Part shown: piece by piece, positions 8,067 to 45,112 of the stretch
How the letters are laid out: every line of letters begins with the position of its first letter
Numbering within the stretch: the stretch's first letter is position 1
Assembly (NCBI GenBank): GCA_964605205.1
Contig: CAZSBL010000004.1
Location: 1-55,500 of the forward strand
Source: an uncultured Gemmatimonadaceae bacterium
Lineage (GTDB): Bacteria; Gemmatimonadota; Gemmatimonadetes; Longimicrobiales; RSA9
Length of the DNA: 55,500 nt
Direction: 5' to 3'
Program-made: the position numbers and the translations under genes
The notes under the pieces: generated by a model
Database searches by the model: none
Told to the model about the DNA's origin: nothing
The model's input: only the letters and a program-made list of their open reading frames with translations

Positions 8067-9002
8067 ATGCACGATGAGGTGAGACCAGAGACGGCCGGCG
8101 TCCCCGGCGGGCGCGAGCCCGCGCCGGGCCCCACGCTGAGTGCCACGTGCTGGGGCACGCGGGGCTCGATCCCGAGCCCGGGCCCGGCCACGGCCCGCTT
8201 CGGCGGCAACACCTCGTGCCTCGAGATCCGGACCGATGACGACCGGTGCCACATCTTCGACGCGGGCACCGGGATCCGGGTGCTGGGCAACCGCCTGTCG
8301 CAGGAGGATGGTCCGACCAACGTGAACCTGTTCGTGACCCACTTCCACTGGGACCACATCCAGGGGATCCCGTTCTTCGGCCCCCTCCACGCGCCGGGCA
8401 GCTTCATCCGGATCCACGCCGCCCGGCAGGGCGAGCTGGACATCGAGACGCTGCTCAGGGGGCAGATGGGGCCCGTGTACTTTCCGGTGCCGTACGAGGC
8501 GCTGGCGGCGGACCTCTCGTTCGAGCACCTGTCGGGCAAGCCGTGGCACGACAACGGGACCGAGGTGGCGGCGTACCGACTCCGGCACGCGGCCCACACG
8601 TACGGCTACCGGATCACGGCGGGTGACGCGAGGGTGGCGTACATCCCCGACAACGAGCTGCTGGGATCGAGCTACCCGGTGGACGGGCCCGATTGGTACG
8701 ACGGGCTGCTCGGGTTCCTCGATGGCGTGGACGTCCTTTTCCACGACGCCATGTTCACCGAGGACGAGTACCCCGCTGTGGAAGGCTGGGGGCACAGCAC
8801 GTTCAAGCAGTCGGTCAAGCTCGCCGAAGACGCGGGCGTGAGACGGCTGTACTTCTTTCACCACGCACCCGAGCGCACCGACGCCGAGCTGCTGGGCATC
8901 CTCGACCGGATGCGCGAGGACGTGGAACGGCGCGGGTCCGGCCTCGAGCTGGGCGTCGCGGCGGAGGGCGAAGAACTCCTGGTTCAGGGAGGCGAATCGT
9001 GA
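8067..9002 (+). CDS. Metallo-beta-lactamase-fold hydrolase, putative cyclic-nucleotide phosphodiesterase
   Basis: WGTRGSIP..FGGNTSC, DAGTG, THFHWDHIQG, HDAMF, WGHS and FHHAP. The PDE role is inferred from the neighbouring genes. Confidence 0.85.
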   Translation: MHDEVRPETAGVPGGREPAPGPTLSATCWGTRGSIPSPGPATARFGGNTSCLEIRTDDDRCHIFDAGTGIRVLGNRLSQEDGPTNVNLFVTHFHWDHIQGIPFFGPLHAPGSFIRIHAARQGELDIETLLRGQMGPVYFPVPYEALAADLSFEHLSGKPWHDNGTEVAAYRLRHAAHTYGYRITAGDARVAYIPDNELLGSSYPVDGPDWYDGLLGFLDGVDVLFHDAMFTEDEYPAVEGWGHSTFKQSVKLAEDAGVRRLYFFHHAPERTDAELLGILDRMREDVERRGSGLELGVAAEGEELLVQGGES

Positions 9003-10930
9003 GAATCCGACATTTCCTGGTCCTGGCGGCCGTCACCCTGTTCGTGGCGTTCGGTCCGCCGGAGCGGACCTCGCCGGCGAAGTGGGCGCTGGTTATCGGG
9101 ATCAGCGACTACACCCACTTCGGCGACGAGATCGGCGGCGACCTGCCGGGCGCCGCCAACGACGCCCGGGCCATCGCCGACGTCCTGGTCAACAAGTATG
9201 ACTTCGCGCCGGGCAACGTGAAGCTGGTCCTCGACGGTGCCGCCACCCGGGCCCGGCTCGAGACGGAGATGACCGAATGGCTGCCGTCCATGGCCCGGCC
9301 CGGTGACCTGATCTGGTTCTACTTCGCCGGTCACGGCTCACAGGCGTGGGACCTCGATGGCGACGAGGAGGACGGCCTGGACGAGACCGTATGCCCCGCC
9401 GACGTGACCCGGGGCAACACCGAGATGGACATCCTGGATGACGAGATCGGCCAGTGGCTCGGCCAGCTGCCCACCGACAACGTGGTGGTGGTCTGGGACA
9501 AGTGCCACGCCAAGAGCAGCACCCGGGCGGTGACGCCGTTCGCCCGGCCCCGATCCCTCGACCGGAACGTGAAGGAGGACGTGGCCAAGCCCGAGGGCGC
9601 CACCGAGGGCCAGGTGGTCCAGGCCACCGAGGATGCCGGCGGCACCGGCACCGGCGTGCTCGAGATCGCGTCCGCCCAGGCCGACGAGGTGGCCATGGAC
9701 GTGGCGTTCCAGAAGCAGCCCGGGCAGGCCACCTTCGGCGGCGCGTTCACCACGCCGTTCGTGGAGAACATGTGGAACGCCCGGGACGGCGCCACCTACG
9801 ACGAGGTCTTCAACCAGACCAAGAGCGCCATGCGGCGGGATCGGCGGCAGCAGCAGCCGGCCATCGATGACAAGTCGCTGAAGGACCGGCCGCTGTTCTG
9901 GGTCGAGACGGCGCAGCCCACGGAGGCGCCGCCGGAGGCGGAGGCCTCGCCGGTGGAGCGCGTGTACGGGATGGCCCGGATCCTCGAGCTGCCGTCGGAG
10001 ACGCGGGCGATCCTGGCCGGCGGGTTCAACGCCGACATGACCGTACGGTCGCTCTACCGCGCCGGTGATGACTTCCTCGAGATCACCGATGTGGACCCGG
10101 ACCGGGCCGAGGCCCGGGTCGCCACGCGGGAGACCCGGGGGATCGGCGTGAGCCGCGTGGGCGCGCTGGCCGAGGGTGGCCTCGCCCGGCTGGTGGCGTA
10201 CCGCTACCCGGACGCCATGCTCCGGGTCATGGTCGGCGACCTGCCGGATCAGGTCCAAGCGCGGCTGCGCAGTGAGCTGGTCAGCGTGCCGGCGCTGGTG
10301 CTGATCTCTGATGCCATCGACTTCTCACACCTCCTGGTCCGCCCCCGGAACAACCACTTCGTGGTCCTCAATCTCGACGGCTTCCCCCGGGACTCGGTCC
10401 CGGCCACCGATGGCGCCGCGGGGCTCGCTGAGCTGCTGAAGCGGGAGTTCGGCCAGTACCAACTCACGGAGCTGGAGAACCCGGGCCAGCCGTTCGAGGT
10501 GGAGTTCGCGTTCGGCAACGGTCGCACCGACTTCCAGCTCGGCGAGACCGTCTCGTTCCAGGTCACCTCGGAGCGGGAGGGCTACCTGACCATCGTGGAC
10601 CTGGCGCCGGACGGGACCGTCAGCGTCATCTTCCCGAACGAGTACGTGGCCGAGAACAAGGTCTACGCGGGCCGGATGATGGAGTTCCCGGCGCCGGAGA
10701 TGGACCTCCAGTTCACCGCCATCGAGCCCGCGGGCCGGGGCGTGGTCCGGGCCTTCGTGACCGAGCGGCCGCTGGTCATGCCGTTCGCTCAGGGCGCCGA
10801 CGCCACGGAGGCCAGCCGGATCTGGACGGCGCTGCGCAACGCGGCCGGCCGGGCGCCGATCCAGGGCAGCGACGCCATCCCGGTCCACAACTGGGCCACG
10901 GCGGCCATCGTGTACGAGATCCGGCGCTAA
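8999..10930 (+). CDS. Exported peptidase C14 (metacaspase-like) with C-terminal DUF4384-like domain
   Basis: GTGA overlap with the MBL stop; hydrophobic leader VRIRHFLVLAAVTLFVAFG; KWALVIG, FAGHG (His), DEEDGLDET, WDKCH (Cys); C-terminus LGETVSF..EGYLTIVD..DGTVSVIFPN. Confidence 0.88.
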   Translation: MRIRHFLVLAAVTLFVAFGPPERTSPAKWALVIGISDYTHFGDEIGGDLPGAANDARAIADVLVNKYDFAPGNVKLVLDGAATRARLETEMTEWLPSMARPGDLIWFYFAGHGSQAWDLDGDEEDGLDETVCPADVTRGNTEMDILDDEIGQWLGQLPTDNVVVVWDKCHAKSSTRAVTPFARPRSLDRNVKEDVAKPEGATEGQVVQATEDAGGTGTGVLEIASAQADEVAMDVAFQKQPGQATFGGAFTTPFVENMWNARDGATYDEVFNQTKSAMRRDRRQQQPAIDDKSLKDRPLFWVETAQPTEAPPEAEASPVERVYGMARILELPSETRAILAGGFNADMTVRSLYRAGDDFLEITDVDPDRAEARVATRETRGIGVSRVGALAEGGLARLVAYRYPDAMLRVMVGDLPDQVQARLRSELVSVPALVLISDAIDFSHLLVRPRNNHFVVLNLDGFPRDSVPATDGAAGLAELLKREFGQYQLTELENPGQPFEVEFAFGNGRTDFQLGETVSFQVTSEREGYLTIVDLAPDGTVSVIFPNEYVAENKVYAGRMMEFPAPEMDLQFTAIEPAGRGVVRAFVTERPLVMPFAQGADATEASRIWTALRNAAGRAPIQGSDAIPVHNWATAAIVYEIRR

Positions 10931-10942: not shown

Positions 10943-13129
10943 ATGGAGCGGAAGCGGGCGGTCATCGCCGGCGTCATCGCGCTGCTGTCGGCCGTGGTGG
11001 CGTACGGGTTCACGCACATGCAGTTCTTCCAGCCGATCTTCGGGACCGCGGAGCAGACCACCCTCGACTGGCGGCAGCGGTTCTCCGCCACCGAGATGCC
11101 CCGCGACACCTCGGAGATCCGGCTGATCCTCTTCGATGAGGAGAGCGTGGCGGAGTGGCCGTACATGAGCCCCTTCCCCCGCAACGTCCTGGCCGACCTG
11201 ATCCGTGTGTCGTCGGCGTTCGCCGCCGCCGCCATCGGGCTGGACGTCTACCTCGAGCGCCGTTACCCCGAGCTGAACCCCGTGGGCGGCGGCGACGAGG
11301 CGCTCCGGGCGGCCATCGAGCAGGCCGGCAACGTTATCCTGGCCGCGCCCCTCGACCGGACCGAGGCGGGGGGGTGGGTGGCTCACCCGCCCGACCCGTA
11401 CTTCGCGGAGGTGGCGGCGGGCGTCGGCTACGCGGAGATCCCCACCGCCTTCGACGTGGTCTCCGAGGCCACCCTCTTCACCCGCACGGAGAACCGGGGC
11501 TTCGTCCCCGGCTTCGCCCTGGCCGTATACGCCCGGACCCGGGGGCTCGACCTCGACTCGCTCATGACCAGCATCGAGGAGAAGGGGTACCTCGACCTGC
11601 CGGGCCTGCCGGAGGAGTACGCCCGGGTGAAGCCCGATGAGGCGGTCCACAACATGAAGATCGTGTTCGCCGGCCCGCCCTCACGGCCGCACCTCGAGAC
11701 GGTGGACGCCAGCGGCGCCACCGCGAGCGAGGGCGAGTCCCCCGGCGCGTTCCGGGCGTTCTCGTCGCAGTCCATCTCCGCGTTGAGCGACCTGGTGGCC
11801 ATGGGCGTGGACCTGGGCGAGGCCTTCGACCTGCGGGGCCGGGCGGTCATGATGGGGAGCGGCTTCCACGCCGAGGAGAAGTTCAAGACCCCGTTCTACT
11901 TCGAGCCCGACGAGACGGGCGCCATCAAGGGGTGGATGTTCGGGACCGAGGTCCACGCCAACGCGCTCCACGACCTGCTGACGGCCACCTACCTTGAGCC
12001 GCTGAGCACCGCCCGGACCTTCTTCCTGCTCCTGATCCTGGCCGCCATCACCGCGGCGGTGGCGTTCACCGGTGGCGTGACGTGGGGCGCGGTGACGGCC
12101 GTGGCCCTCTTCCTGGCCGATGGCGTCACCGCCGTGGTGGCTTTCGACACCATGCACCAGCACATCCCCGTGGTGGGCCCGGCGCTGGCCGCCGGCTTCG
12201 CCTTCCTCGGCGCCACCTCCTACATCAGCATCATCGAGGGGAAGGAGAAGCGGGTCATCCGGAGCGCGTTCGGGAAGTACCTCTCCCCGGTGGTGGTGGA
12301 CGAGCTGGTGGCCGACCCGTCGCGCCTCAAGCTGGGCGGTGAGAAGCGGGAGCTCAGCATCCTGTTCAGCGACGTGGCGGGCTTCACCTCCCTCTCCGAG
12401 TCCATGGAGCCCGACGCGCTGGTGGCGCTGCTGAACGAGTACCTCGATGATATGGCGGACATCGTCATGAGCGAGGGCGGCACGCTGGACAAGTACATCG
12501 GTGACGCCATCATGGCGCTCTACGGGGCGCCCGCGCCGCTCCCGGACCACGCCGTCCGCGTCTGCCGCACGGCGCTCCGGATGCAGCGGCGGCTCGACCA
12601 GATGAACCAGCGTTGGGCCGAGCAGGACCGGCCCCAGCTCGGGATGCGGATCGGCGTCAACACCGGGCACCCCGTGGTCGGCAACATCGGCGGCGAGAAG
12701 CGGTTCGACTACACCGCCCTCGGTGACGCCGTGAACCTGGCCGCGCGGCTGGAGCCGGCGTGCAAGACGTACCGGATCCAGACCATGATCGCCCACGGCA
12801 CGAAGGAGGCCGCCGGCGACGCCATCCAGACCCGGGAGCTGGACCTGCTGGCCGTGTACGGCAAGGAGGAGCCGATCCCGGTCTACGAGCTGGTGGCGCT
12901 GGCCGGTGAGGAGCTGGGCGAGATGGGCGAGCTGATCGAGCAGTTCGAGAAGGGGATCGGCGCGTACCGGAACCGGGACTTCGAGATGGCCCGGCAGTAC
13001 TTCCAGGCCGCCCTCGAGATCGACCCGGACGACGGACCGGCCGAGCTGTACGTGCAACGATGCGACGAATACATGATCAACCCGCCGCCGGCCGAATGGG
13101 ACGGTGTGGAGCGGCGGCAGGTGAAATGA
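10943..13129 (+). CDS. CHASE2-domain class III adenylate cyclase with C-terminal TPR
   Basis: N-terminal TM, CHASE2-like region (IGLDV, GNVIL, GTEVHANAL), 3 TM helices, FSDVAGF, DKYIGDAIMA (Lys for ATP selectivity), YTALGDAVNLAARLE, TPR-like tail. Confidence 0.93.
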   Translation: MERKRAVIAGVIALLSAVVAYGFTHMQFFQPIFGTAEQTTLDWRQRFSATEMPRDTSEIRLILFDEESVAEWPYMSPFPRNVLADLIRVSSAFAAAAIGLDVYLERRYPELNPVGGGDEALRAAIEQAGNVILAAPLDRTEAGGWVAHPPDPYFAEVAAGVGYAEIPTAFDVVSEATLFTRTENRGFVPGFALAVYARTRGLDLDSLMTSIEEKGYLDLPGLPEEYARVKPDEAVHNMKIVFAGPPSRPHLETVDASGATASEGESPGAFRAFSSQSISALSDLVAMGVDLGEAFDLRGRAVMMGSGFHAEEKFKTPFYFEPDETGAIKGWMFGTEVHANALHDLLTATYLEPLSTARTFFLLLILAAITAAVAFTGGVTWGAVTAVALFLADGVTAVVAFDTMHQHIPVVGPALAAGFAFLGATSYISIIEGKEKRVIRSAFGKYLSPVVVDELVADPSRLKLGGEKRELSILFSDVAGFTSLSESMEPDALVALLNEYLDDMADIVMSEGGTLDKYIGDAIMALYGAPAPLPDHAVRVCRTALRMQRRLDQMNQRWAEQDRPQLGMRIGVNTGHPVVGNIGGEKRFDYTALGDAVNLAARLEPACKTYRIQTMIAHGTKEAAGDAIQTRELDLLAVYGKEEPIPVYELVALAGEELGEMGELIEQFEKGIGAYRNRDFEMARQYFQAALEIDPDDGPAELYVQRCDEYMINPPPAEWDGVERRQVK

Positions 13130-13146: not shown

Positions 13147-14085
13147 ATGCGGTCCATTACACGAGCGGGATTCATGGTCCTGGCGCTCAGCGTGACAGCG
13201 GCGGCGTTGGCGGCCTCGCCGCCGGACCCGGTGGCGCTGTTGGTGAAGTTCAGCGGCGATGTATCCGTCCAGCTGGCGGAGACCGAGGAGAGCGTGGCCG
13301 GCGCCATCGGACTGGCCCTGGCGCCCGGTGACCAGGTGGTGATCGGCGAGGGGGCGGAGGCCATGGTCCTCTACAAGACCGGCCGGATGGTGAAGGCGGC
13401 GTCTACGGTCACCATCGAGGCGGTGGAGGCCGCGGAGGCCAGCAGCCTGTTCACCAACACCATGCGAACCCTCGGCCAGGTGGCCACCACCGACGCCCGG
13501 ACCCAGCCGAACCGCCAGGGGATGATCCGGCCCATCGCCGGCGCGCCCGTGCCCATAGCGCCCCGGAACGCCATCAAGGTCCTCGATGTCAGGCCCACCT
13601 TCACCTGGTTCAGCGTGGAGGGCACCGAGGAGTACATGATCCAGCTCCAGCGCCAGGGCGCAGACTCCCCCGCCCCCGTCCGCTGGCGCGCGGGCAGCGA
13701 CACCACCTGGACGCTCCCCAGCACCGAGCCTCCCCTCGTCCCCGGCGCCACCTACGTCTGGACCGTGGGCAGCCCCGTCGGCCGGGTGGCGGAGCCGAAG
13801 CACTTCACCGTGGCCTCCGCCGAAGACGTGGCTGCCGTGCAGGAGGCCATGCAGGGGCTCATCGGGGCCGGGATCGACCCGTCCACCGACGGACTCTTCC
13901 TCACCGCCCTGGCCTACCGCGATGCTGGCCTCCACTACGAGGCCTACGGCGCCATCCGGGCCATCGAGGAGGCCGGCAACGGCAGCGGACACGCCTTCTT
14001 CATGCTGAAGGGCGAGGTGCTCGACGCCCTCGGCATGGTCGACGACGCCGCCGAGGCCTTCGCCAGGGCCGAGGACGCCGGCTGA
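13147..14085 (+). CDS. Exported protein, FecR-like N-terminus plus DUF928-like C-terminus
   Basis: Signal peptide; GDVSV..LAPGDQVVIGEGAEA (FecR-like); RPTFTW, LVPGATYVWTV and ALAYRDAGLHYEA recall DUF928. Confidence 0.6.
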   Translation: MRSITRAGFMVLALSVTAAALAASPPDPVALLVKFSGDVSVQLAETEESVAGAIGLALAPGDQVVIGEGAEAMVLYKTGRMVKAASTVTIEAVEAAEASSLFTNTMRTLGQVATTDARTQPNRQGMIRPIAGAPVPIAPRNAIKVLDVRPTFTWFSVEGTEEYMIQLQRQGADSPAPVRWRAGSDTTWTLPSTEPPLVPGATYVWTVGSPVGRVAEPKHFTVASAEDVAAVQEAMQGLIGAGIDPSTDGLFLTALAYRDAGLHYEAYGAIRAIEEAGNGSGHAFFMLKGEVLDALGMVDDAAEAFARAEDAG

Positions 14086-14093
14086 CCGGACGC

Positions 14094-16061
14094 ATGCACA
14101 CCGCCGCGGCGGAGCGCGCGGTCCTGCTGCACGGGGCCGCCTTCGACACCACCGGGATCGCCGACGCCCTCGAGGCCGAGGGCGTCGGTGTCCGCACCGC
14201 CGTGGACCTCACCGCCATCGAGTCCGACCTGCCCGCCGTGCTGCTCATCGACCGGCGGCACGTCGAGCAGGCCCAGGACCTCACCGCCACGCTGGACCCC
14301 CTCCCTGCCGGCGTGGCGGTGATGGCCTGGGGCGAGGCCGCCGAGCGGGCCGTGGGTGGCCATGACCGCTTCTTCATGGCCCTCCCGGAGACCGCCGATG
14401 ACCGCACGGTCCTGAAGGCGCTCCAGGCTGCCCTCCGCCACGCCACCGCGGAGCGGGGCCGCGCCCGCATGGAGACCGAACTCGAGAAGAGTCGGGGCGA
14501 GCTCCAGGAGCTGAGCCAGATCGGGATGGCGCTCATGACCGAGCGAGACCCCGACCGGCTCCTGGAGAAGATCCTGGACCGGGCCATGGCCATGACCGGC
14601 TCCGATGGCGGCAGCCTCTACCTGGTGGAAGACGAGCCCGAGGGCGACAACCAGCGGCTCCGGTTCAAGCTCTCGGAGACCCGGTCGCTCCCCGACCTTC
14701 CGGCCATCGAGTTCACGCTGCCCATGGACCAGACCTCCATCGCCGGCTACGTGGCGGTGAACAACCAGGCGCTGGTCATCGAAGACGCGTACAGCATCCC
14801 CGAGTCCGCCCCGTACTCCTTCAACCGCGGCTTCGACCGGGAGTACGGCTATCGGGCCAAGTCCATGCTCGTGGTCCCCATGGCCGACCACAAGGACGAG
14901 GTGGTGGGCGTCCTCCAGCTCATCAACCGGAAGCGCGACCCCGAAGCTCTGATCCGCGACGAGGCGTCGGCGGCCGAGCACGTCCTCTCCTACGGCCGCC
15001 GCGAGCTCGACCTGGTCCGCGGCCTGGCCGGACAGGCCGCCGTCTCCATCGAGAACGCGCGCCTCTACGAGCAGATCGAGGACATCTTCGAGTCCTTCGT
15101 CCGCGCCGCCGTGGCCGCCATCGACCAGCGGGACCCCACCACCGCCGGTCACTCCGTCCGCGTGGCCGCCCTCACCACCCGCATCGCGGAGGTCCTGCCA
15201 CGCCTCTCCACCGGCCGCTGGGCCGGGACCCGCATGAGCCGGGAGCAGATGAAGGAGCTCCGCTACGCCGCTCTCCTCCACGACTTCGGCAAGGTCGGCG
15301 TCCGCGAGGAAGTCCTGGTCAAGGCCCGGAAGCTCCCGCCCTACCTCTGGGAGCGCGTGGACGCCCGCTTCGACATCATCCACCGGACCATCGAGCGCGA
15401 CTACCTGCGCAGGAAGCTCCGGGCGCTGGACCAGGGTGAGCTCGACGGGCTCGAGGCCGACCCCGAGTCCTACGACCGGGAGATGCGCGAGAGGCTCGAG
15501 CGGCTCGACGAGTGGCGCGAGACCGTCCACCGGGCCAACGAGCCCTCCATCCTCCCCGAAGAGGGCGAGGCCCTCCTCAATCTCATCGCTGGCGAGACCT
15601 TCGAGAACGTTGACGGAGAGGAGGAGCCCTACCTCCACGACCAGGAATACAGCTACCTCTCCATCCCCAAGGGCAGTCTGAACGAGCGGGAGCGGAAGGA
15701 GATCGAGAGCCACGTCACCCAGACCTACAACTTCCTGACCCAGATCCCGTGGACCGAGGAGCTGGGCGACGTGGCCTTCATCGCCTGGGGGCACCACGAG
15801 AAGCTCAGTGGCAAGGGCTACCCCCGGGGCGTGACCGGCGACGAGATCCCCGTCCAGACCCGGATGATGACCATCGCCGACATCTTCGACGCCCTCACCG
15901 CCGCCGACCGGCCCTACAAGAAGGCCCTCGGCGCCGACCGCGCCCTCGAGATCCTCCAGATGGAGGCCGCCGACGGCGACCTCGACACCGACCTCGTCAC
16001 CCTCTTCATCGAGTCCGGGGTCTACCGGGAGGTCCTGGAGACCGACTGGCGAGAGCTGTAG
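14094..16061 (+). CDS. GAF and HD-GYP domain phosphodiesterase with degenerate receiver-like N-terminus
   Basis: GAF (SIAGYVA, KSMLVVPM, VVGVLQLIN, LAGQAAVSIEN); GHSVRVA, LLHDFGK, HHEKLSGKGYP, IADIFDAL. Confidence 0.92.
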   Translation: MHTAAAERAVLLHGAAFDTTGIADALEAEGVGVRTAVDLTAIESDLPAVLLIDRRHVEQAQDLTATLDPLPAGVAVMAWGEAAERAVGGHDRFFMALPETADDRTVLKALQAALRHATAERGRARMETELEKSRGELQELSQIGMALMTERDPDRLLEKILDRAMAMTGSDGGSLYLVEDEPEGDNQRLRFKLSETRSLPDLPAIEFTLPMDQTSIAGYVAVNNQALVIEDAYSIPESAPYSFNRGFDREYGYRAKSMLVVPMADHKDEVVGVLQLINRKRDPEALIRDEASAAEHVLSYGRRELDLVRGLAGQAAVSIENARLYEQIEDIFESFVRAAVAAIDQRDPTTAGHSVRVAALTTRIAEVLPRLSTGRWAGTRMSREQMKELRYAALLHDFGKVGVREEVLVKARKLPPYLWERVDARFDIIHRTIERDYLRRKLRALDQGELDGLEADPESYDREMRERLERLDEWRETVHRANEPSILPEEGEALLNLIAGETFENVDGEEEPYLHDQEYSYLSIPKGSLNERERKEIESHVTQTYNFLTQIPWTEELGDVAFIAWGHHEKLSGKGYPRGVTGDEIPVQTRMMTIADIFDALTAADRPYKKALGADRALEILQMEAADGDLDTDLVTLFIESGVYREVLETDWREL

Positions 16062-16545: not shown

Positions 16546-16584
16546 GCGCCTACCCCACCGCGCCAGCATCCAGCCAGGCGGCTG

Positions 16585-17510: not shown

Positions 17511-17719
17511 GATCACTCCTCGGACCGGAGCGAGAGGTCGCCCCTTGCGCTCGACCTTCGCTGGTGACGATACGCCCCCCGGGCTGATCAGCCAAGCGGT
17601 TCAACCCCCTGGCGCTGCCATTTGCGCGGCGCTGTGGCGGGGCGTTAGCGTGGGCTCGTACTCCCGATGGGACCCCACTCCAGCCGCCGGCCGGATCGAG
17701 GCCGAGGGAGGAAGCCGTC

Positions 17720-19148: not shown

Positions 19149-20906
19149 CTACCGGTCCGTATCAGCCCCCGCGCCCGCCACGGCCAGGGGGATATCCCCG
19201 AGCCCGGAGAACTGCGGGTTCTGGCGCCCGTCGGTGGCATCGCGGACGCCGCCCTTCACGTAGGTGGCGACCTCGACGAAGGTGACGATCCCGTTGCCGT
19301 CGGCGTCGGCGTCGCCGTTGAGTCCCTGGAGGATGTGGTGGGTGAAGACGCCGTGGCCGCCGGCCCAGCGAGCGTCCTCGAAGCTGAGCTCGTTGACGTC
19401 TGCGGCGGTGAGGGTGAGCCGGCGGGACGGGGTGAACAGGTCATTGAAGGAGCCACCGATGGGGTTGCCATCGATGGGGATGTCGGACTCGCCGGTGCCG
19501 GCGGAGTGGCAGGCGTCGGCGATGACCACCACGCGCTCGGCGGAGATCTGCCGCCGGAGCGCGGTCTTCACGTCCCACATGGGGAACCCGGTGGCCGCCA
19601 GCGCGTCGACGTCGGTGTCCACGGGGAAGAGGTAGAGGTTGTCGGGGCGGTCCGGGTCGGGGGCGCCGTGGCCGGCGAAGTATATGACCACGAGATCGTC
19701 CCAGTCGGCCTGCTGGAGGAAGACGAACATGGCCTCGCGCATGGCGGCGCCGGTGGCCTGCTCGTCGGTGAGCAGGAGGATGTGGTCCTCCTCGAACGGG
19801 CCGGCGGCGTCGGAGCGGAGGAAGTCGTGGATGGCGCGGGCGTCGTCATCGGCGTACTCGAGGTCGGGGATGAGCCCGTCGTCGTACTCGCCGATCCCGA
19901 TGACCACGGCCCAGCGCTCGTCGATCCGGGGCGACGCGAATGCGGTGCGGGTGTTCCCCTGGCCGTCGCGGGCGACGATCCGGACGGAGTCACGGTCCAG
20001 CGCCAGCGGCGTCCGGGCGACGAACCGCGAGGCCGGGCCCCGGGTGATCCCCAGCCGCTGGGCGTCGGCGGCGCTCAGCCGCTCGAGGGAGACGGGCTCG
20101 CCCTCCACCTCCACGGCCACATCGCTGCCGATGACCACGCCCTCGATCTCCACCAGGTTCGTGGCGTTCTGCCGGGCCTCGTGCTCGGTGCGGGAGATGA
20201 CGCCGATCCCCCGGGTGGCCATCTCGCTGTCTTCCATCGGCTCGACCCGGGTGCCGAGGATGGCGAGCCCGGGACCGCCGGTGCCGGCCTGGCCCACGGA
20301 CTCCTCCACGGAGCCGGGGTCGGGCTCGAAGTAGCCGCGGCCGGTCCAGCCGTTGGCCTCCCAGTCATTGACGATGCCGCCGAGGAAGCCGGTCTCGTTG
20401 ATGACCTCCTCGGTGGCGGCCCGGAGCGCGCCGTTCCGGGCGGCCTGGTCCGTGGCCTCGAGCTCGCGGCCGGCGCCGGTCGCGGTGGCCACCACGTTGC
20501 CCTGGTCGAGCCGGAGCGCCCGGAGCCGGACCTCGCCGGTGCCGGTCACCAGCGTACCCGAGATGGGGTCGGGGCTCGTGCCCCAGTCGGCCTGGCCCAG
20601 GATCAGGACCTGGGCGCCGAAATCGCGCCCGAGGCGGACGGCCGCGCCCTCGTCGCCGGCGAGCGCCGCCTGGACCAGCTCCCGCTGCGCGGCCGTGTGG
20701 GCCAGCGCCGGGTCCACCAGCGGGAACCCGGCCTCTACCAGGAAGGAGGTGAGCTCGCCCACGGTCACGCCCGCGCTCCCGTCCTCGGGCACGAACACCA
20801 GCGTGCGAGGCAGCTCGCTCTCGAATCGGATCTCCTGGGCGGCCACCGGCGTCGCGATGGTGCAGACGACGGCGATCAGCAGCCCCAGCGTTGCCATGCG
20901 GTTCAT
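19149..20906 (-). CDS. Exported protein, FlgT/CsgG-like N-terminus plus C-terminal peptidase C14 (metacaspase-like)
   Basis: Signal peptide; AVRLGRDFGAQVLILG; RWAVVIGIGEY, FAGHG, ADACHSAG, GHGVFT, DADGNGIVT. Confidence 0.88.
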   Translation of the reverse strand: MNRMATLGLLIAVVCTIATPVAAQEIRFESELPRTLVFVPEDGSAGVTVGELTSFLVEAGFPLVDPALAHTAAQRELVQAALAGDEGAAVRLGRDFGAQVLILGQADWGTSPDPISGTLVTGTGEVRLRALRLDQGNVVATATGAGRELEATDQAARNGALRAATEEVINETGFLGGIVNDWEANGWTGRGYFEPDPGSVEESVGQAGTGGPGLAILGTRVEPMEDSEMATRGIGVISRTEHEARQNATNLVEIEGVVIGSDVAVEVEGEPVSLERLSAADAQRLGITRGPASRFVARTPLALDRDSVRIVARDGQGNTRTAFASPRIDERWAVVIGIGEYDDGLIPDLEYADDDARAIHDFLRSDAAGPFEEDHILLLTDEQATGAAMREAMFVFLQQADWDDLVVIYFAGHGAPDPDRPDNLYLFPVDTDVDALAATGFPMWDVKTALRRQISAERVVVIADACHSAGTGESDIPIDGNPIGGSFNDLFTPSRRLTLTAADVNELSFEDARWAGGHGVFTHHILQGLNGDADADGNGIVTFVEVATYVKGGVRDATDGRQNPQFSGLGDIPLAVAGAGADTDR

Positions 20907-21574
20907 CGGCTTCCTCCTTCCACTCGCTCGAGAGCCGCGGCCGCGGCCTCGTGCCGTGGGAACAGCTCCAGTGCTCTGCGATACATCTCCGCGGCCCGGC
21001 CCTCGAGCCCCTGCTCCTCGTAGGCCAGACCCCGGGAATAGGCCAGGATCGCCTCGACGGGCGGCTCCGCGACGTGGCCGGCCACCCGGGCGGGCAGCTC
21101 GATCCCGTCGAGGAAGTCGTCGGTCAGCGCGGTGACCAGGTCGAGCATGGCGTCGCGCCGGCCCTGCTGCCGGCTCGCCTTCTCCACCGTGCCGCTGGCG
21201 GCGTCGAGCAGGCGCAGGTCGATCCGGACCCGCTCCGGCTCCAGCGCCACCGTCCCGATCACCAGGTAATCCGCGCCCAGCACCCGGGCCAGCTCCACCG
21301 CCCGGCTCTCGTCCATCCGGCCCGAGAGCGCCAGCTGCCGCGTCTGGATCAGCTGCTCGATCTGCTGCCGGTCCACCACCTTCACCACCGGCCGATCCGC
21401 CAGCTCTGTGGTGATCATCGACGCCAGACCACGCCCCACCGCGTCCGCGTCCTCACCCGTCAGACTGAAAACGTTGAAGTCGAACACGGCGATAGTCGGC
21501 ACCCGGGCGTCCTGCGCCGCCGCCGCCACTGGCAGCAGCGCCATGACCAGAGCCAGCACAAAACGTCGAACCAC
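20903..21574 (-). CDS. Exported CsgG/FlgO-like domain plus TPR protein
   Basis: GGAGG then GTG; signal peptide ending AAAQ; IAVFDF, VVDRQQI, ARVLGADYLVIG, C-terminal YRRALELFP TPR; ATGA overlap with the caspase gene. Confidence 0.8.
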   Translation of the reverse strand: MVRRFVLALVMALLPVAAAAQDARVPTIAVFDFNVFSLTGEDADAVGRGLASMITTELADRPVVKVVDRQQIEQLIQTRQLALSGRMDESRAVELARVLGADYLVIGTVALEPERVRIDLRLLDAASGTVEKASRQQGRRDAMLDLVTALTDDFLDGIELPARVAGHVAEPPVEAILAYSRGLAYEEQGLEGRAAEMYRRALELFPRHEAAAAALERVEGGSR

Positions 21575-22150: not shown

Positions 22151-22372
22151 ATGAAGGTGACGATCGAATATTGCGGGATGTGAAACTACCTGCCGCGAGC
22201 CTCCAGGATGGAGGCACGGATCAAGGAAGCGTTCCCGGGTGCCGACGTTGAGCTGATAGAGGCGGGGGGTGGCGTTTTCGAGGTGGAGAAGGACGGAGAG
22301 CTGATCTACTCGAAGAAGCGGACCGGCCGCCACGCCGAGTGGGAGGATGTCCGGGACAGGCTGGCCGAGTGA
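22151..22372 (+). CDS. SelT/SelW/SelH (Rdx) family selenoprotein, CxxU motif
   Basis: AGGAG RBS; MKVTIEYCGM-UGA-NYLPRA..GGGVFEV..DGELIYSKKRTGRH. In-frame TGA at 22181-22183; absent from the ORF track. Confidence 0.92.
22193..22219 (+). promoter_or_regulatory. Bacterial SECIS hairpin
   Basis: GCCTCCA-GGA-TGGAGGC stem-loop (22199-22215) with a CCG/CGG lower stem; the G-initial loop begins 23 nt after the UGA. Confidence 0.75.
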
Positions 22373-22385
22373 GGAGAACGCAGTC

Positions 22386-40217: not shown

Positions 40218-42585
40218 CCAGCTGGTTCCGGCCCAGGTACTCCGGGTCGATCCCGCCCCAGCACGCCAGCGCGCTGCCGTCGGTGGCGCACGTCTCGCTC
40301 CCGCCGCCGGCCAGCGCGTCGGGCGTGAAGCCCAGCGCCGGGACCGCGATCGGGGTCCGGGTCACCCGGGGCAGCGCCTGCCCGAGCTGGAGCTGGTCGT
40401 TGCCGCCCCAGCAGAAGACCTCGCCCGTATCGGCCAGGGCGCAGCCGTGGACCCAGCCGAGGGCCACGTCGGTCACGGTGACCGATGTCGGGAACGGCAC
40501 CGTGGCGGGCGTTGTCACTTCGAAGCCCGGGTCGCCGGTGCCCACCTGCCCGGCGGAGTTGTACCCCCAGCACTCGATCCCACCGGCGCCGGTGATCCCG
40601 CAGCTGTGGGCCGCGCCCACGGCGAGCCCGGTGTACGTCTGGCCGCCGGAAACCTGGACCGGCGAGCGGGCCTCGGCCAGCGCGCCGTCGCCGATCTGGC
40701 CCTCCTCGCCCCGGCCCCAGCACCAGATGGTGCCATCGGTGGCCAGGCCGCAGGTATGGATCCAGCCGGCGGCGAGCTCGGTGAAGGTGTGCCCGCCGGC
40801 CACGGCCACCGGCGAGGCCGACGCCGTGGCGGCGCTCCCGCTCCCCAGCTGGCCGAAGAAGTTCGAGCCCCAGCAGTAGGCGGCGCCGGTGTCATCGAGG
40901 GCGCAGCTGTGCCCGCCGCCGGCCGCCACCGACGTGAGGGTGCCGGCCACGGCCCCATCGCTCACGGGCGTCGGCTGGAGGCGGTCGGTGGCGGTGCCGT
41001 CGCCGAGCTGGCCGAAGCGGTTGTCGCCCCAGCAGAAGGCTCGGGCGCCGCCCACCGTGTCCATCAGCGCACAGCTGTGCAGCCCCCCGGCGCTGACCTG
41101 CGTGTGGGTGTCGCCGGTGGTCTGGAACGGGTTGAACGCCAGCGCCGTGGTGTCACGGTCGATCCGGGTCCCGTCGCCGAGCTGGCCGAGCTGCCCCACG
41201 CCCCGGCAGTAGACCCGGCTCTGGTTCCCGTCGATCCAGCAGGTGTGGCCGTCGCCCACGGTCACGCTCCCGGGCCCACCGACGTCGGTGCCGTTGCGGA
41301 CCTCGACCGTGGCGGCGAACGTCTCGCCCTCCACCTCGCCGGTGACCCGGGCCGCCGCGAGTGCGCTCGCCGCGCCCTGGCCCGTGGCCAGCCCGGTGGC
41401 GTCCACGCTCGCGATCCCGTCATCCGACGACGTCCAGAGCGGCGCCGGCGCGTTCTCCACCGGGTAGCCGTTGGCGTCGAGGGGCACGATGGCCAGCTGC
41501 ACGCTCCCGCCCACGCCCACCACCGCGTGGGCCGGGCTCGGCGCCGCGGCGGTGGTGACCTGGTCGACCACCACGAGCACGCTGTCGCTGAACGGACCCA
41601 GCTCGGCCACCACCCAGCTCTCGCCGTTGGCCCGGGAGATCATGCTCCCCTGGATCCCGACGTCCCGGGTGGGCGTGTGCTCGAGCACCACGCCGTTCCG
41701 GACCGTCCAGTCCAGCTCCACGTTCCGGACCGTGTCACCCGTAGCGCCCAGCGGCACGCCCCGGATGAGGTACTGCCACCCGAACGCCGGGATGGTGTCC
41801 GGCGACCGGGCGAAGGTCATGGTGTCTGGCACCACCGGCAGCGCCACCGTGTCGGCCAGCGTGCGGAACGCCACGCGCCCCACGATCCGGACCGTCCGGG
41901 AGCCATCGTGCTTGACCCGGACCAGCCCGGTCGAGTCGACGGTGGCGGCCAGGGTGTCGACGGAGCTCCAGACCATGAGCGGGTCCGGCACATCGGATCC
42001 GTCGTCGGCGAGGCCGACCGCCGTGAGCTGGAGCTGTGCACCGGCGGTGAACGATCCTGACGCGCCCTCGATCTCGACGCTCTCCAGCGTCGCCTCGGGC
42101 CCGGTGTACTCGAGCACCGGCTGCGATGGCGCGGGGTTCGTCTCGTTGGAGGACAGCGCCAGCTGCTGCCGGGCCTGGAAAAGGACGGTGTTCCCCTCCC
42201 GCCCCTGGAGATCGAAGTCGAACGACTCCTCGCCCGTGACCTCGAGGGCCACCTCCACCCGCAGCGTGTCCTGGTCCAGCGGCCACTCCACCACCTGGTC
42301 CACCACCGTGTCGCCGGCCTCGTCCACGATCACGACCCGGATGTTGTCCACCCGCAGCGCCGGATCGTCGCCGTCCAGCGCCGTCTCGTCGTGCTGCGCG
42401 AACCGGGGCTGCATCACGAGGTGGACGGTGCCCCGGTCGGGGCCGAACGCGTCGTCGCACGCGGCGGCCAGTACGAATACGGCCAGGAGGCCCAGCAGTG
42501 CGGGAAGGAAGCCCCGTCGCGTTCCGCGCCCGGATCGCTCGCGCCCGGATTCGTCGGGTCGCATGGATCGATTCAGTTCAGCCAC
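40168..42585 (-). CDS. Lipoprotein with Ig-like (Big_2) domains and RCC1/BLIP-II repeat propeller
   Basis: Lipobox LAAAC-DD; WSSVDTLAATVDSTGLV and WTSSDDGIASVDATGL; repeated xGxxHxC..CWG.N..GQLG. Confidence 0.88.
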   Translation of the reverse strand: MAELNRSMRPDESGRERSGRGTRRGFLPALLGLLAVFVLAAACDDAFGPDRGTVHLVMQPRFAQHDETALDGDDPALRVDNIRVVIVDEAGDTVVDQVVEWPLDQDTLRVEVALEVTGEESFDFDLQGREGNTVLFQARQQLALSSNETNPAPSQPVLEYTGPEATLESVEIEGASGSFTAGAQLQLTAVGLADDGSDVPDPLMVWSSVDTLAATVDSTGLVRVKHDGSRTVRIVGRVAFRTLADTVALPVVPDTMTFARSPDTIPAFGWQYLIRGVPLGATGDTVRNVELDWTVRNGVVLEHTPTRDVGIQGSMISRANGESWVVAELGPFSDSVLVVVDQVTTAAAPSPAHAVVGVGGSVQLAIVPLDANGYPVENAPAPLWTSSDDGIASVDATGLATGQGAASALAAARVTGEVEGETFAATVEVRNGTDVGGPGSVTVGDGHTCWIDGNQSRVYCRGVGQLGQLGDGTRIDRDTTALAFNPFQTTGDTHTQVSAGGLHSCALMDTVGGARAFCWGDNRFGQLGDGTATDRLQPTPVSDGAVAGTLTSVAAGGGHSCALDDTGAAYCWGSNFFGQLGSGSAATASASPVAVAGGHTFTELAAGWIHTCGLATDGTIWCWGRGEEGQIGDGALAEARSPVQVSGGQTYTGLAVGAAHSCGITGAGGIECWGYNSAGQVGTGDPGFEVTTPATVPFPTSVTVTDVALGWVHGCALADTGEVFCWGGNDQLQLGQALPRVTRTPIAVPALGFTPDALAGGGSETCATDGSALACWGGIDPEYLGRNQLAIPPSSADPLAAFSGR

Positions 42586-43742
42586 AGCACACCTCCACGC
42601 AGCACGAGTCCGAACACGCTCTCGCCCTCCAGGTCACCGATCTGGACCAGCGCCGCCGGCTCGAGGCGGAGCGGGCCGAACCGCCAGGTGACGGCGGAGC
42701 CCAGCCGGGTGATCCAGCCGCTGCCGGCGCCGAAGCCCGGCTCACCACTCTGCACCATCACTTCCGCCCGGGGGCGGAGCGTGAGCGCCGGTGAGAGCGG
42801 GTACGCCACCGACGCGCCGGCGCCCAGCAGGTTGCTGGCCGGCGTGGCCTGGGGCGCCGTGCCGATCAGCAGCTCGCTCTCCGTTCGGTAGAGGTTCCAC
42901 GCATACACGCTGGCCGCGCCCGTCAGGAACGGGAACTCGGCCACCGCCTCGCCCATGAGCCGGTCGCCCCGGGCGAAGACCGCGTCATCGTCCGTCTCGT
43001 CCTCGCCGAACCGGCTCCAGGAGCCCGCCAGCCGGACCGTCACGCCCGACGTGCTCGGCCGCTCGAGCCCGACCCGGAGCCGGAGCTCGGAGCCCGGCCG
43101 GAACTCAGACGCCTCCGTACCCGCGCTGGCGATGACCGGCTCGTACGCCGAGCCGACCCGGTAGACCGCGATCCCGCCGACCACCCAGTCACCCATGGGC
43201 TGGGCGATGGCCAGTCCCGTGGTCACGCCGGCACCGCTGCCGAAGCTGCGGACGGGGAGCGTGAGCAGATCCGTGGTGATGACGCCGGCCACCGGGATCT
43301 CGTCGGTGCCCAGCGCCGACGTGCCCGTGGGCACGTTCCCCGCCACGATGATCCGGCCCCGACCCTCCATCATGGGGATCATGGCCCGGAGCGTGATGTC
43401 GGTGAGCCCCGACAGCTCGCTGGTCACGCCGCCCGCCTCGTACCTCGCGCTGGCGTACGCCGCGTTGGCATCCAGCTGCATGCCGGCGAGCCGGAAGCTG
43501 AGCCCGAACGGGACCACCAGCTCCGTCAGCGACGCGTCACCGATGGACAGCGAGTACACCCCCGTCTCGGCCACCGCCGCCTGGGCCCGGGCACCGTCCG
43601 GCGCACCGAAGAAGACCAGCACGGCGAGGGCCGCGGCGAGTCCGCGCGCCGCCGCGCGCTCGAAGGCCGACCGAGGTCCGGAAGCTGCTCCGAGCCCGGG
43701 GGCCGCCGCGACGGCCGGAGCCGCCCGTCGTCGCCGGCTCAC
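42573..43742 (-). CDS. Outer membrane beta-barrel-like hypothetical protein
   Basis: Long leader ending ARAQ; alternating amphipathic strands; aromatic C-terminus. Confidence 0.65.
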   Translation of the reverse strand: MSRRRRAAPAVAAAPGLGAASGPRSAFERAAARGLAAALAVLVFFGAPDGARAQAAVAETGVYSLSIGDASLTELVVPFGLSFRLAGMQLDANAAYASARYEAGGVTSELSGLTDITLRAMIPMMEGRGRIIVAGNVPTGTSALGTDEIPVAGVITTDLLTLPVRSFGSGAGVTTGLAIAQPMGDWVVGGIAVYRVGSAYEPVIASAGTEASEFRPGSELRLRVGLERPSTSGVTVRLAGSWSRFGEDETDDDAVFARGDRLMGEAVAEFPFLTGAASVYAWNLYRTESELLIGTAPQATPASNLLGAGASVAYPLSPALTLRPRAEVMVQSGEPGFGAGSGWITRLGSAVTWRFGPLRLEPAALVQIGDLEGESVFGLVLRGGVLWLN

Positions 43743-45112
43743 GGGATCCTCCAGAACAGGATGAGCGGGCGAGGTCGGGTGAGGACGATGGGGATCCGGA
43801 CCACCTGGCCCACCCCCGTCCCCGCCGTGGTCTCCGTGGTCTCCACCGTGGAGGTCTGGGTGGAGGTGTTGCTGGTGCCCGTGGCGCTGGCGCCCGTCTC
43901 CGTGGCGGCCGCCCCGGCCGGGACCGTGGCGTTCACCAGCTGGTCGATGGGTGATGCGGCCGCCGTCGGCGGTGGCGCGGGGTCCCCGCCCCCGGGGCCG
44001 ACCTCCGCCGCCAGCTCGGAGGTTGCCTGCTGCGTGACCTGCGACATCCTGGTAGTGCCCGCTCGCCGCGACTGTGTCGCCGCCTGCCTCGCCGCGTTGA
44101 ACCCCGGGTCCAGCTGGACGGCGTTGTCGAACCGGGCCGCCGCGGCGTCGTAGCGGCCGGCGTCGAGGAGCTGGAGCCCCTCGCTGTAGGCCAGGAACGC
44201 CTGCAGGTTCCGTGTGGGCTTGTCCTCGAGCCGGGCGATCTCAGTGGACGTCAGCTCGATCCCCAGCTGCCGGTAGATCTGGAGCGCCAGCTGCACCTCC
44301 ATCTCCATCAAACGCTCCAGCACGCCCGACTCCGTGGCCTCGCCCGTGGGCTCCGCCGCCTCGGCGTTCAGAACCAGCGTCGTGACCCGGGTGTCCTCCC
44401 CGGACTCGTCGATGGCGATCTGACCCTGCACCAGCCGGCCCGCCTGCAGCAGGCGACCCACCCGGGCCGCCGACGCGGCGTCGGTGTAGCCGCCCAGCGC
44501 CAGCTTGGCCTCTTCCATCAGCGCCGACAGCTGCGCCCGCTCCAGCACCGTGAGCCGGTCCGTAAGGCTCAGGTCCGTGGTCAGCAGCTCCGCCAGCCCC
44601 ACGCCCAGCGGCCGGTACCGCTCGGGGCCGTCGACGATGAGCGGGATCACGCCCACCGTGGCCGGGTCCAGCTCGCCCACCAGCGCCTGCTCCCGGGCCA
44701 GCGCGTCCCGGGCCCGCCGCTCCAGCAGCTCCTGGCTCACCACTGTGAGCCGCGCCTCCACCGACCCGGCCGCGTCCTCACCGCCCTCGTCCAGGTAGGT
44801 CCGGTACGCTTCGGCGGCGCCCTCGATGTCGCCCGTCTCCTCCCGCCATGTGCCCAGGTGCGCCCACGCGGCCACCGGCGTGCCTGGCAGCTCCGCCGAC
44901 CGCTCCAGCGCCTCCCGGGCCTCGTTCGGCCGGTCCGCGGCGCCGTACGCCACCCCCAGCCGTGCCCACGCCCGGGCGTCGTTCGGGTCCTCCGACGTCA
45001 CCCGCTCCAGCTCCGGGATCTCGTCGGGGGAGACCGTGCCCATGCCCATCCCGGCCCCACAGCCGGCCAGGAACAGGGATACGCCAACAAGGAGAATCGC
45101 TCGGCTCGACAT
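43739..45112 (-). CDS. TPR plus CsgG/FlgO-like lipoprotein
   Basis: Lipobox LAGC; N-terminal TPRs; TVLERAQL, VGRLLQAGRLVQG; C-terminal TPR and Thr/Ala-rich tail. Confidence 0.82.
   Translation of the reverse strand: MSSRAILLVGVSLFLAGCGAGMGMGTVSPDEIPELERVTSEDPNDARAWARLGVAYGAADRPNEAREALERSAELPGTPVAAWAHLGTWREETGDIEGAAEAYRTYLDEGGEDAAGSVEARLTVVSQELLERRARDALAREQALVGELDPATVGVIPLIVDGPERYRPLGVGLAELLTTDLSLTDRLTVLERAQLSALMEEAKLALGGYTDAASAARVGRLLQAGRLVQGQIAIDESGEDTRVTTLVLNAEAAEPTGEATESGVLERLMEMEVQLALQIYRQLGIELTSTEIARLEDKPTRNLQAFLAYSEGLQLLDAGRYDAAAARFDNAVQLDPGFNAARQAATQSRRAGTTRMSQVTQQATSELAAEVGPGGGDPAPPPTAAASPIDQLVNATVPAGAAATETGASATGTSNTSTQTSTVETTETTAGTGVGQVVRIPIVLTRPRPLILFWRIP

Follow-up and report, generated by a model that had tools for sequence, protein, structure and literature searches.

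Why would a bacterial caspase homologue be exported from the cytoplasm, and why would its gene start overlap the stop codon of a small gene encoding a protein of related fold? These questions are raised by a coupled gene pair on the minus strand of a 55,500-nucleotide stretch of DNA (hereafter the window; G+C content 70%) from an uncultured Gemmatimonadaceae bacterium (Longimicrobiales; GCA_964605205.1, contig CAZSBL010000004.1, positions 1-55,500). The upstream gene encodes a 223-residue protein, hereafter the partner, and the downstream gene encodes a 585-residue C14 caspase homologue, hereafter casp2. Based on gene organization, predicted structures and analogy with known envelope assemblies, we lean towards the view that the two proteins are subunits of an outer-membrane-associated hetero-oligomeric envelope protease complex. 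The features of the pair are as follows (pLDDT, predicted local distance difference test; TPR, tetratricopeptide repeat).

20903..21574, minus strand: partner gene, a 223-residue exported protein with a signal peptide, an alpha/beta domain of the TolB_N/LpoB/FlgO/CsgG superfamily, and one TPR with a capping helix (open reading frame, Pfam, AlphaFold, Foldseek)
21515..21574, minus strand: partner signal peptide, residues 1-20, cleavage after AAA, without a lipobox Cys (by inspection; pLDDT <50 for residues 1-22; homologues alike)
21110..21502, minus strand: partner alpha/beta domain, approximately residues 25-155, FlgO/LpoB/TolB_N-like (Pfam FlgO and CsgG; Foldseek)
20915..21058, minus strand: partner C-terminal TPR unit and capping helix, approximately residues 173-220 (Pfam TPR_1 and TPR_2; PDB profile matches; model helices)
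20903..20906, minus strand: ATGA stop/start overlap, translational coupling (sequence)
19149..20906, minus strand: casp2 gene, a 585-residue exported C14 caspase homologue with a signal peptide, an N1 domain (FlgT_M/TolB_N-like), an N2 beta-sandwich and a caspase domain (open reading frame, Pfam, homologues, model, Foldseek)
20838..20906, minus strand: casp2 signal peptide, residues 1-23, cleavage after VAA (by inspection; replaced by a non-hydrophobic linker in the fusions L074/P0155 and P0157)
20337..20819, minus strand: casp2 N1 domain, approximately residues 30-190, with the alpha/beta fold of the partner and nearest to the FlgT middle domain (hhalign, model, Foldseek, remote homologues)
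19923..20321, minus strand: casp2 N2 domain, approximately residues 196-328, all-beta, sandwich-like (model secondary structure; the FlgT alignment in Foldseek spans N1 and N2)
19206..19916, minus strand: casp2 caspase (p20-type) domain, residues 331-567 (Pfam; MALT1 caspase domain by Foldseek)
19668-19670, minus strand: codon of the catalytic His413, in FAGHG
19509-19511, minus strand: codon of the catalytic Cys466, in DACH
19416-19436, minus strand: F-x-P-S-R-R loop, casp2 residues 491-497, in which F491, P493, S494, R495 and R496 are invariant

An earlier note on this DNA had described two minus-strand open reading frames at 19149-21574 that overlap by ATGA, and the sequence reads exactly so, with the partner stop codon TGA at 20903-20905 and the casp2 start codon ATG at 20904-20906. 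The casp2 gene has a GGAGG Shine-Dalgarno sequence at 20913-20917, within the 3' end of the partner gene. The most plausible start of the partner is the GTG at 21574, which has a GGAGG about 6 nucleotides on its 5' side and is in register with the starts of 24 homologues in the alignment. A scan of 18.8-22.4 kb for promoters and terminators gave nothing above chance.

By inspection, both proteins begin with a Sec-type signal peptide (MVRRFVLALVMALLPVAAAA, followed by QD, in the partner; MNRMATLGLLIAVVCTIATPVAA, followed by QE, in casp2), each with a positive n-region, a hydrophobic core and an Ala-x-Ala-type site (cleavage between AAA and QD and between VAA and QE). The N-termini of both AlphaFold models are detached, low-confidence segments or isolated helices, and no internal signal peptide remains in the natural fusions of the two proteins (see below). 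These three observations together indicate that both proteins are exported, in agreement with the signal peptides read by the earlier note. No conserved lipobox was found in the partner or casp2; the partner segment ends in AAAA before QD and holds no Cys, and none of 25 partner homologues has a lipobox (0/25). A Tat signal for the partner, which has RR at positions 3-4, was considered and rejected, as RR is not conserved among the homologues.

The coupling of the two genes is a general property of the family. With each GTDB species represented by one genome, a scan detected relatives in at least 386 genomes, and the loci studied here are the best 80, all from Gemmatimonadota, on which the window proteins were mapped by phmmer. 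The partner lies directly upstream of the caspase on the same strand in all 77 loci that retain upstream DNA. Stop and start codons overlap in 56 of these loci, by a 4-nucleotide [A/G]TGA in 46 and by 1 nucleotide in 10, and in most of the other 21 the nearest in-frame start is at most about 36 nucleotides from the partner stop. In one locus (L074), partner and caspase form one reading frame of 808 codons (1451-3874 of that locus) encoding a 795-residue protein, in which the signal peptide of the caspase part is swapped for a Pro/Ser/Thr/Ala-rich linker. The same protein (P0155) resurfaced independently in a search of representative proteins, along with a second fusion (P0157) that is 61% identical to it, is broken off by the contig end and likewise has no internal signal peptide. 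Since the two fusions have diverged from each other, an assembly artefact is excluded. From the invariant adjacency and the two natural fusions, a physical partnership of the partner and casp2 is well supported, as judged here from the genes.

The same evidence bears on the simplest alternative, in which the two are independent envelope proteins whose alpha/beta domains each bind other machinery and which share only their regulation and location. The best structural matches of the partner, LpoB and the N-domain of TolB, are both monomeric adaptors, and the locus lies in a conserved syntenic block beside a phosphofructokinase (PFK) gene (22347-23471, plus strand), which adjoins the pair in 50/53 loci; both points would fit independent proteins. 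This alternative is nevertheless very unlikely in our judgment, since it leaves unexplained the adjacency in every locus, mostly with overlapping codons, and the two independent gene fusions. It is also at odds with the co-evolution of the two proteins, which reaches the level seen for domains within one protein: with PFK controlled for, pairwise-distance correlations are 0.45-0.60 between the partner and the casp2 domains and 0.47-0.61 among casp2's own domains, all without a significance test.

What kind of protein is the partner? Among Pfam families, it exceeds the gathering threshold (GA) for FlgO (26.2 bits, GA 22.6; residues 29-151, profile positions 7-122 of 130) and LpoB (24.6 bits, GA 22.3; profile positions 49-138 of 147), and matches TolB_N weakly (profile positions 27-104 of 106). 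Its best Pfam E-value is to CsgG (E = 2.8e-13), confined to profile positions 3-98 of 210. Pfam also finds one TPR unit toward the C-terminus, and a profile of the partner family searched against PDB sequences matched consensus TPR proteins, which confirms the TPR, and LpoB weakly. The AlphaFold model (mean pLDDT 82.7) consists of a beta-alpha-alpha-alpha-beta3-alpha domain followed by three helices (residues 173-187, 191-204 and 209-220). Foldseek against the PDB matched this model, always with probability 1.00, to the LpoB C-domain (3.9e-7), the TolB N-domain (5e-7), FlgT (1.9e-6), the PelC dodecamer (4e-6), the CsgG pre-pore (1.5e-5), GNA1162 and FlgT in the LPHT ring. Judged from its sequence and predicted structure, the partner is soluble, belongs to the TolB_N/LpoB/FlgO/CsgG-N superfamily and ends in a TPR tail.

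Its resemblance to the CsgG channel includes the periplasmic alpha/beta fold, the motif around helix 3 and strand 3, and the presence of CsgG pre-pore chains among the Foldseek matches of both the partner and casp2. Neither the partner nor casp2 is a CsgG channel, however, since they have neither a lipid anchor nor transmembrane hairpins and no curli genes lie nearby. The two barrel hairpins of CsgG are absent from the model, where the alpha/beta domain extends to about residue 155 and gives way to the TPR helices, and the neighbours of the pair are PFK, caspase, lipoprotein, beta-barrel and cyclase genes, with none of csgE/F or csgA/B among them. Public records name the homologues of the partner 'CsgG/HfaB family protein' or 'TolB-like protein', and the former label overstates the CsgG relationship. 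The earlier description of the partner as a CsgG-like-TPR protein stands as regards the TPR and the CsgG superfamily fold, which Pfam and Foldseek both find, but the protein is not CsgG proper and is nearer to FlgO, LpoB and TolB_N. Residues 79-227 of the partner also show a weak match (18.7 bits, far under the cut-off of 400) to TIGR04510, 'putative peptide modification system cyclase', at its positions 278-434. If this match is accepted as it stands, a TolB_N-like domain with TPR would also be fused to nucleotide cyclases elsewhere; the cyclase of the window likewise ends in TPR.

The partner fold recurs in casp2 itself. The two proteins share a motif, AVELARVLGADYLVIG in the partner and AVRLGRDFGAQVLILG in casp2, which BLASTP aligns with 14/28 identities (E = 0.003). 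When the N1 family (residues 25-195) was aligned with the partner family by hhalign, 84 columns matched in topologically correct register (E = 3e-5), whereas the N2 and caspase domains, used as controls, gave E = 0.19 and 0.78. A hidden Markov model (HMM) of N1 run against the 479 open reading frames of the window matched the partner at E = 8e-4, and it also matches a genuine CsgG-family lipoprotein of another organism (1.8e-6). In the AlphaFold model of casp2, N1 has a pLDDT of approximately 85-95 and shows the same beta-alpha-alpha-alpha-beta3-alpha order as the partner. Foldseek with the whole of casp2 returned GNA1162 (2.4e-5) and FlgT (4.4e-5 over 327 columns, covering N1 and N2), as well as FlgT in the LPHT ring, CsgG, PelC, HpaA, LptE and the caspase domain of MALT1; the FlgT structures matched by N1 are 3w1e and 8z5n. 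A profile of N1 and N2 searched against 1.84 billion representative proteins gave 558 matches at E <=1e-3. When 118 remote matches were scanned with Pfam, 42 had FlgT_N directly upstream of the matching domain, 12 had CsgG, 11 Peptidase_C14, 6 LpoB, 5 FecR, and 2 each FlgT_M, FlgO and TolB_N.

Direct family searches were less informative. The N-terminus of casp2 gave nothing above threshold in Pfam or NCBIfam, 15 N1 sequences gave only sub-threshold Pfam matches (DUF3280, GNA1162-like, CsgG, LpoB), and the N1 profile gave nothing significant against PDB sequences. Since these searches were null, the fold assignment rests on hhalign, on AlphaFold with Foldseek, and on the large profile search. 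N1 is best described as FlgT middle-domain-like, within the TolB_N superfamily, and from sequence profiles and the model this description holds. FlgT_N gave no Pfam match in casp2, no flagellar genes lie nearby, and N2 has no Pfam match and no family assignment. Two proposals of the earlier note are borne out here. The motif A..(L/G)R..GA..L(V/I).G is indeed common to partner and caspase, as BLASTP, hhalign and the N1 HMM agree, and the caspase has its own CsgG/FlgT-like domain, on which five tests agree (BLASTP, hhalign, HMM, structure with Foldseek, and the 1.84 billion-protein search) and whose nearest relative is the FlgT middle domain. Structure prediction, which the note had named as a check, gave a CsgG/FlgT-superfamily fold in each protein.

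The protease domain appears intact. Peptidase_C14 is the sole Pfam match of casp2 (E = 1.2e-16, 61.5 bits, GA 21.4; residues 331-567). There are more than 800 homologues of casp2; those listed share about 60% identity with it across 95-100% of its length and, where named, belong to Gemmatimonadota or Longimicrobiales, and public records call them 'caspase family protein'. His413 (FAGHG) and Cys466 (DACH) are invariant in 32 aligned proteins and in 70/70 sequences from related loci, so the catalytic dyad that had been read as intact in this one protein is invariant throughout the family members compared. Across 48 genomes, the mean corrected distance of the caspase domain is 0.32, compared with 0.41 for the neighbouring PFK, a sign of strong purifying selection, while the partner and N2, at 0.71-0.73, evolve about twice as fast as the caspase domain. 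Regarding the p10 region and the calcium-binding 280-loop, the Pfam domain runs unbroken to residue 567, and residues 465-516 are of low confidence in the model.

An Asp two residues ahead of the catalytic Cys (DxCH) is a trait of metacaspases and orthocaspases. Since casp2 has the DACH motif, as metacaspases do, and the characterised non-metazoan C14 enzymes all cleave after Arg or Lys (PMC5756287), the comparison suggests a basic P1 specificity for casp2. Approximately 29 residues past the catalytic Cys, the F-x-P-S-R-R loop is modelled with low confidence; if casp2 cleaves after Arg, this loop could, as a speculation, be a candidate autoprocessing or pseudosubstrate site. With orthocaspases such as MaOC1 of Microcystis, casp2 shares the p20-type domain, the His-Cys dyad, the DxCH motif and a multidomain build. 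It differs from them in being exported, in having an obligate coupled partner and in the N-terminal position of its accessory domains, which in orthocaspases are commonly C-terminal (PMC5756287).

How might the two proteins work together? The nearest functional analogue is the H-ring of Vibrio, in which FlgT (proximal), FlgO (distal) and FlgP co-assemble under the outer membrane (bioRxiv 10.1101/358820). The pair is similar to this system in that the partner passes the Pfam FlgO threshold over nearly the whole profile and N1 is most like the FlgT middle domain. It differs in that casp2 has no FlgT_N, no flagellar genes are present, the partner is not a lipoprotein, and the FlgT-like module carries a caspase domain, which is not known from any flagellar protein. 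A cluster from an unrelated organism (L086, 4742-7155) encodes a CsgG-family lipoprotein (partner HMM, 6.6e-16) and a FlgT-like 384-residue protein (N1 HMM, 4e-21) without a caspase, and thus echoes the FlgO/FlgT pairing. The other relatives of the fold, LpoB, the TolB N-domain, PelC and GNA1162, are all periplasmic or outer-membrane-associated protein-binding modules. The partner has its best structural matches among them, and N1 too is matched by GNA1162 and PelC. None of them is known to be fused or coupled to a protease, and LpoB, PelC and GNA1162 are lipoproteins. LpoB binds PBP1B, and TolB binds TolA and Pal. Ring-formers of the fold include PelC (12-mer), CsgG (9-mer) and FlgT in the LPHT ring.

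By analogy with these systems, the homologous alpha/beta domains of the partner and N1, aided by the TPR, would bind each other and form a hetero-oligomer under the outer membrane, as FlgO and FlgT do in the Vibrio H-ring. The partner would control the assembly, positioning or activity of the protease, and may either activate or restrain it. The caspase domain would then cleave periplasmic or outer-membrane substrates after basic residues, as the DxCH motif suggests.

The earlier note likened the pair to an apoptosome, and the same structural matches could be taken to mean that the partner and N1 form a large ring whose sole task is to gather the caspase domains and activate them by proximity, as initiator-caspase platforms do. 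Ring-forming members of the fold are indeed among the matches of both proteins, and the fusions and the strict coupling are compatible with an assembly of fixed stoichiometry. However, the likeness to the apoptosome goes no further than the notion of a caspase carried by a scaffold that oligomerises; the pair has no NTPase, CARD or death-fold module, and resides in the envelope rather than the cytoplasm. We regard proximity activation as unlikely here, since neither Pfam nor NCBIfam detects in the pair an NTPase or any other module that could be triggered to oligomerise, subunits that are constitutively co-translated offer no obvious trigger, and the characterised non-metazoan C14 proteases are not activated by dimerisation (PMC5756287).

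A more economical alternative requires no large scaffold: the partner could be a stoichiometric periplasmic inhibitor of the protease or a folding or stabilising factor, in effect a detached prodomain that would keep the exported caspase inactive or folded on the way to its place of action. This idea accounts for a small coupled gene just upstream of an exported protease, for the N-terminal, prodomain-like position of the partner in the fusions, and for a protein that evolves faster than the caspase domain (0.71 vs 0.32) and yet tracks it. It seems doubtful to us on three counts. The partner fold is not a known protease-inhibitor fold, its relatives being scaffolds and adaptors; the homology of the partner and N1 suggests domain-to-domain pairing rather than blocking of the active site; and an inhibitor or chaperone leaves unexplained the co-conserved lipoprotein and beta-barrel genes listed here.

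43739..45112, minus strand: 457-residue lipoprotein (LAGC lipobox), TPR - CsgG/TolB_N-like - TPR, with a Thr/Ala-rich tail (partner HMM E = 2e-27, Pfam, sequence)
42573..43742, minus strand: 389-residue exported protein, probable outer-membrane beta-barrel (sequence; overlaps the lipoprotein gene by 4 nucleotides)

The lipoprotein is a paralogue of the partner, as the score of the partner HMM indicates. Four of 14 homologues of the 389-residue protein match Pfam OMP_b-brl (best E = 4e-6), while its profile gave nothing against PDB sequences. The beta-barrel gene occurs together with the lipoprotein gene in 55 related loci, and the association of these two genes with the partner says more than that of PFK. 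In most related loci the two lie beside the partner gene and are transcribed divergently from it; in three (L068, L073 and L074) they are in the same operon. Paralogous operons, about 48% identical (L066, L082 and L083), carry on one strand the partner, a casp2 paralogue, a caspase-DUF4384 paralogue, the lipoprotein and the beta-barrel protein, and two genomes (DATIKQ and JBDHIJ) hold both this operon and the main version. In the hetero-oligomeric complex that we favour, the lipoprotein and the beta-barrel protein would dock the assembly to the outer membrane. Behind the beta-barrel gene, with overlapping ends, lies a gene for an 805-residue protein with Big_2 and RCC1 repeats (40168-42585, minus strand), and a homologue (E = 4.7e-14) lies behind the same pair in L066 (6638-9018). 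From this arrangement, the 805-residue protein may belong to the lipoprotein/beta-barrel module.

A further question is whether the pair acts with the signalling genes that lie on the plus strand of the window.

8999..10930 (start approximate), plus strand: first caspase, caspase and DUF4384 domains with an N-terminal hydrophobic signal or anchor (Pfam, translation)
10943..13129, plus strand: cyclase, with a transmembrane segment, CHASE2, three transmembrane segments, a class III nucleotide cyclase domain and TPR (Pfam, translation)
13332..16061 (stop-to-stop coordinates), plus strand: GAF and HD-GYP (HD_5) protein (Pfam, synteny; converges on casp2 in relatives)

In related genomes, a convergent operon downstream of the pair encodes a metallo-beta-lactamase-fold protein, a caspase-DUF4384 protein, a CHASE2 class III cyclase with TPR, an unknown protein and a GAF-HD-GYP protein, and beyond it lies a divergent gene for a SpoIIE phosphatase with a cyclic nucleotide monophosphate (cNMP)-binding domain. 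In the window, the region 6718-16061 is the corresponding conserved signalling block, comprising the cNMP-binding SpoIIE phosphatase, the metallo-beta-lactamase-fold protein, the caspase-DUF4384 protein, the CHASE2 cyclase-TPR and the GAF-HD-GYP protein; the stop of the metallo-beta-lactamase-fold gene and the start of the first caspase apparently overlap at about 8999-9002. Given the N-terminal hydrophobic segment of the first caspase and the layout of the cyclase, with CHASE2 set between transmembrane segments, the sensory parts of the operon would face the compartment of the pair.

The earlier note had regarded the pair and the 8-16 kb operon as probably parts of the same system. This holds in part. 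Downstream DNA of 9 kb or more is available in 47 loci; in 23 of these the GAF-HD-GYP gene is no more than 10 kb away, and in 13 it is the immediate neighbour. In the paralogous operons, a caspase-DUF4384 gene directly follows the pair. However, the linkage is not obligatory, and the region is a syntenic block, to judge from the PFK neighbour. We consider a link with the cyclase operon plausible but facultative. A more speculative step of the mechanism would link the proteolytic output with the signalling genes nearby (CHASE2 cyclase, GAF-HD-GYP and cNMP-binding SpoIIE). In its boldest form, which we think rather unlikely, the partner, its lipoprotein paralogue, the beta-barrel protein and the caspase would form a ring-shaped, outer-membrane-anchored, housekeeping-grade proteolytic machine built from FlgO- and FlgT-like modules, whose periplasmic caspase activity would generate or gate an extracytoplasmic signal for the CHASE2 cyclase.

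The presence of a caspase and a cyclase in one neighbourhood also raises a different possibility, namely that casp2 carries out the killing in a system of programmed death or abortive infection that is set off through the cyclase. PADLOC gives generic matches to a caspase model and to Pycsar-type cyclase models, and casp2 resembles the EACC1-associated caspase of NCBIfam (NF047832, 105 bits). This score, however, is under the family cut-off of 140, casp2 is exported, and neither Pfam nor PADLOC finds a gasdermin, an NTPase sensor or another conflict-system partner. The family is also vertical and phylum-wide, keeps a fixed syntenic position and has a caspase domain more conserved than PFK, the opposite of patchy defence islands. 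We consider such a role extremely unlikely.

Several points weigh against the envelope complex or some part of it. Direct contact between the partner and casp2 and ring formation are drawn from analogy, and LpoB and the TolB N-domain can be monomeric, so the fold does not by itself imply a ring. The co-evolution described above is weak evidence for partnership, and with PFK so often adjacent, synteny alone accounts for some of the conservation of the neighbourhood. The lipoprotein/beta-barrel pair has moved in this window and lies 22 kb from the casp2 pair. The cyclase operon is within 10 kb in only 23/47 relatives, and here three unrelated open reading frames (16141-18949) part the pair from it. 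The casp2 model contains two low-confidence loops, 414-445 and 465-516, in the caspase domain. Finally, a search of sequencing runs with the window DNA returned 0 RNA runs, and the only runs with near-identical DNA were microbial-mat metagenomes of a single study.

The three intervening open reading frames have no informative Pfam matches. The region 16141-18949 looks like an insertion, since the GAF-HD-GYP and casp2 genes are directly convergent in many relatives. One of the three (17720-18949) encodes a 409-residue protein with a LAAC lipobox.

What, then, is new in this locus? Discussion of caspase homologues in bacteria mostly treats them as effectors that act in the cytoplasm, in cell death or immunity. 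The casp2 family stands apart from these. It is exported, phylum-wide and at a fixed place on the chromosome, its caspase domain changes less rapidly than phosphofructokinase, and the scaffold modules joined to it are those known elsewhere from flagellar rings, from the export of polysaccharide and curli, and from the activation of peptidoglycan synthases. The partner domains named in surveys of prokaryotic caspases include WD40, TPR, Sel1, FGE-sulfatase and CHASE2 (PMC3501461, PMC2853523, PMC5756287), and CsgG-, FlgT- or TolB_N-type modules are not among them. Caspase-CHASE2 fusions are known in cyanobacteria (PMC3501461, PMC2853523), and at the time of review only one orthocaspase had been biochemically characterised (PMC5756287). 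Full-text literature searches found no description of the present architecture or operon. The apparent novelty, as read from sequence, is thus an orthocaspase-type protease in the envelope with an N-terminal scaffold module and an obligate homologous partner.

The results correct the annotation of the partner as a 'CsgG/HfaB family protein' and give hundreds of proteins a fold for some 300 N-terminal residues that had no annotation. If the complex is real, it would provide a defined system of two to four components for asking what a caspase fold does in the bacterial envelope, and would show that FlgO/FlgT-type modules are reused outside flagella. If the reading of a ring machine that signals to the cyclase were true, it would be the first case in bacteria of a signalling cascade based on an envelope caspase.

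Caspases fused to the same FlgT_M-like module also occur in other phyla, in several arrangements. One protein (P0186) consists of FlgT_N, an N1-like domain, a caspase domain and PEGA, two others (P0200 and P0302, the latter from Desulfofervidus) have an N1-like domain followed by a caspase domain, and in a fourth (P0191) the caspase domain precedes the N1-like domain. The small gene upstream of the Desulfofervidus N1-caspase encodes an unrelated 120-residue lipoprotein, so a CsgG-like partner is not universal for N1-caspases outside Gemmatimonadota. In the locus from Candidatus Desulfofervidus (L085), two N1-caspase genes (7001-8431 and 9282-10565) flank a gene for a PhdYeFM-type antitoxin.

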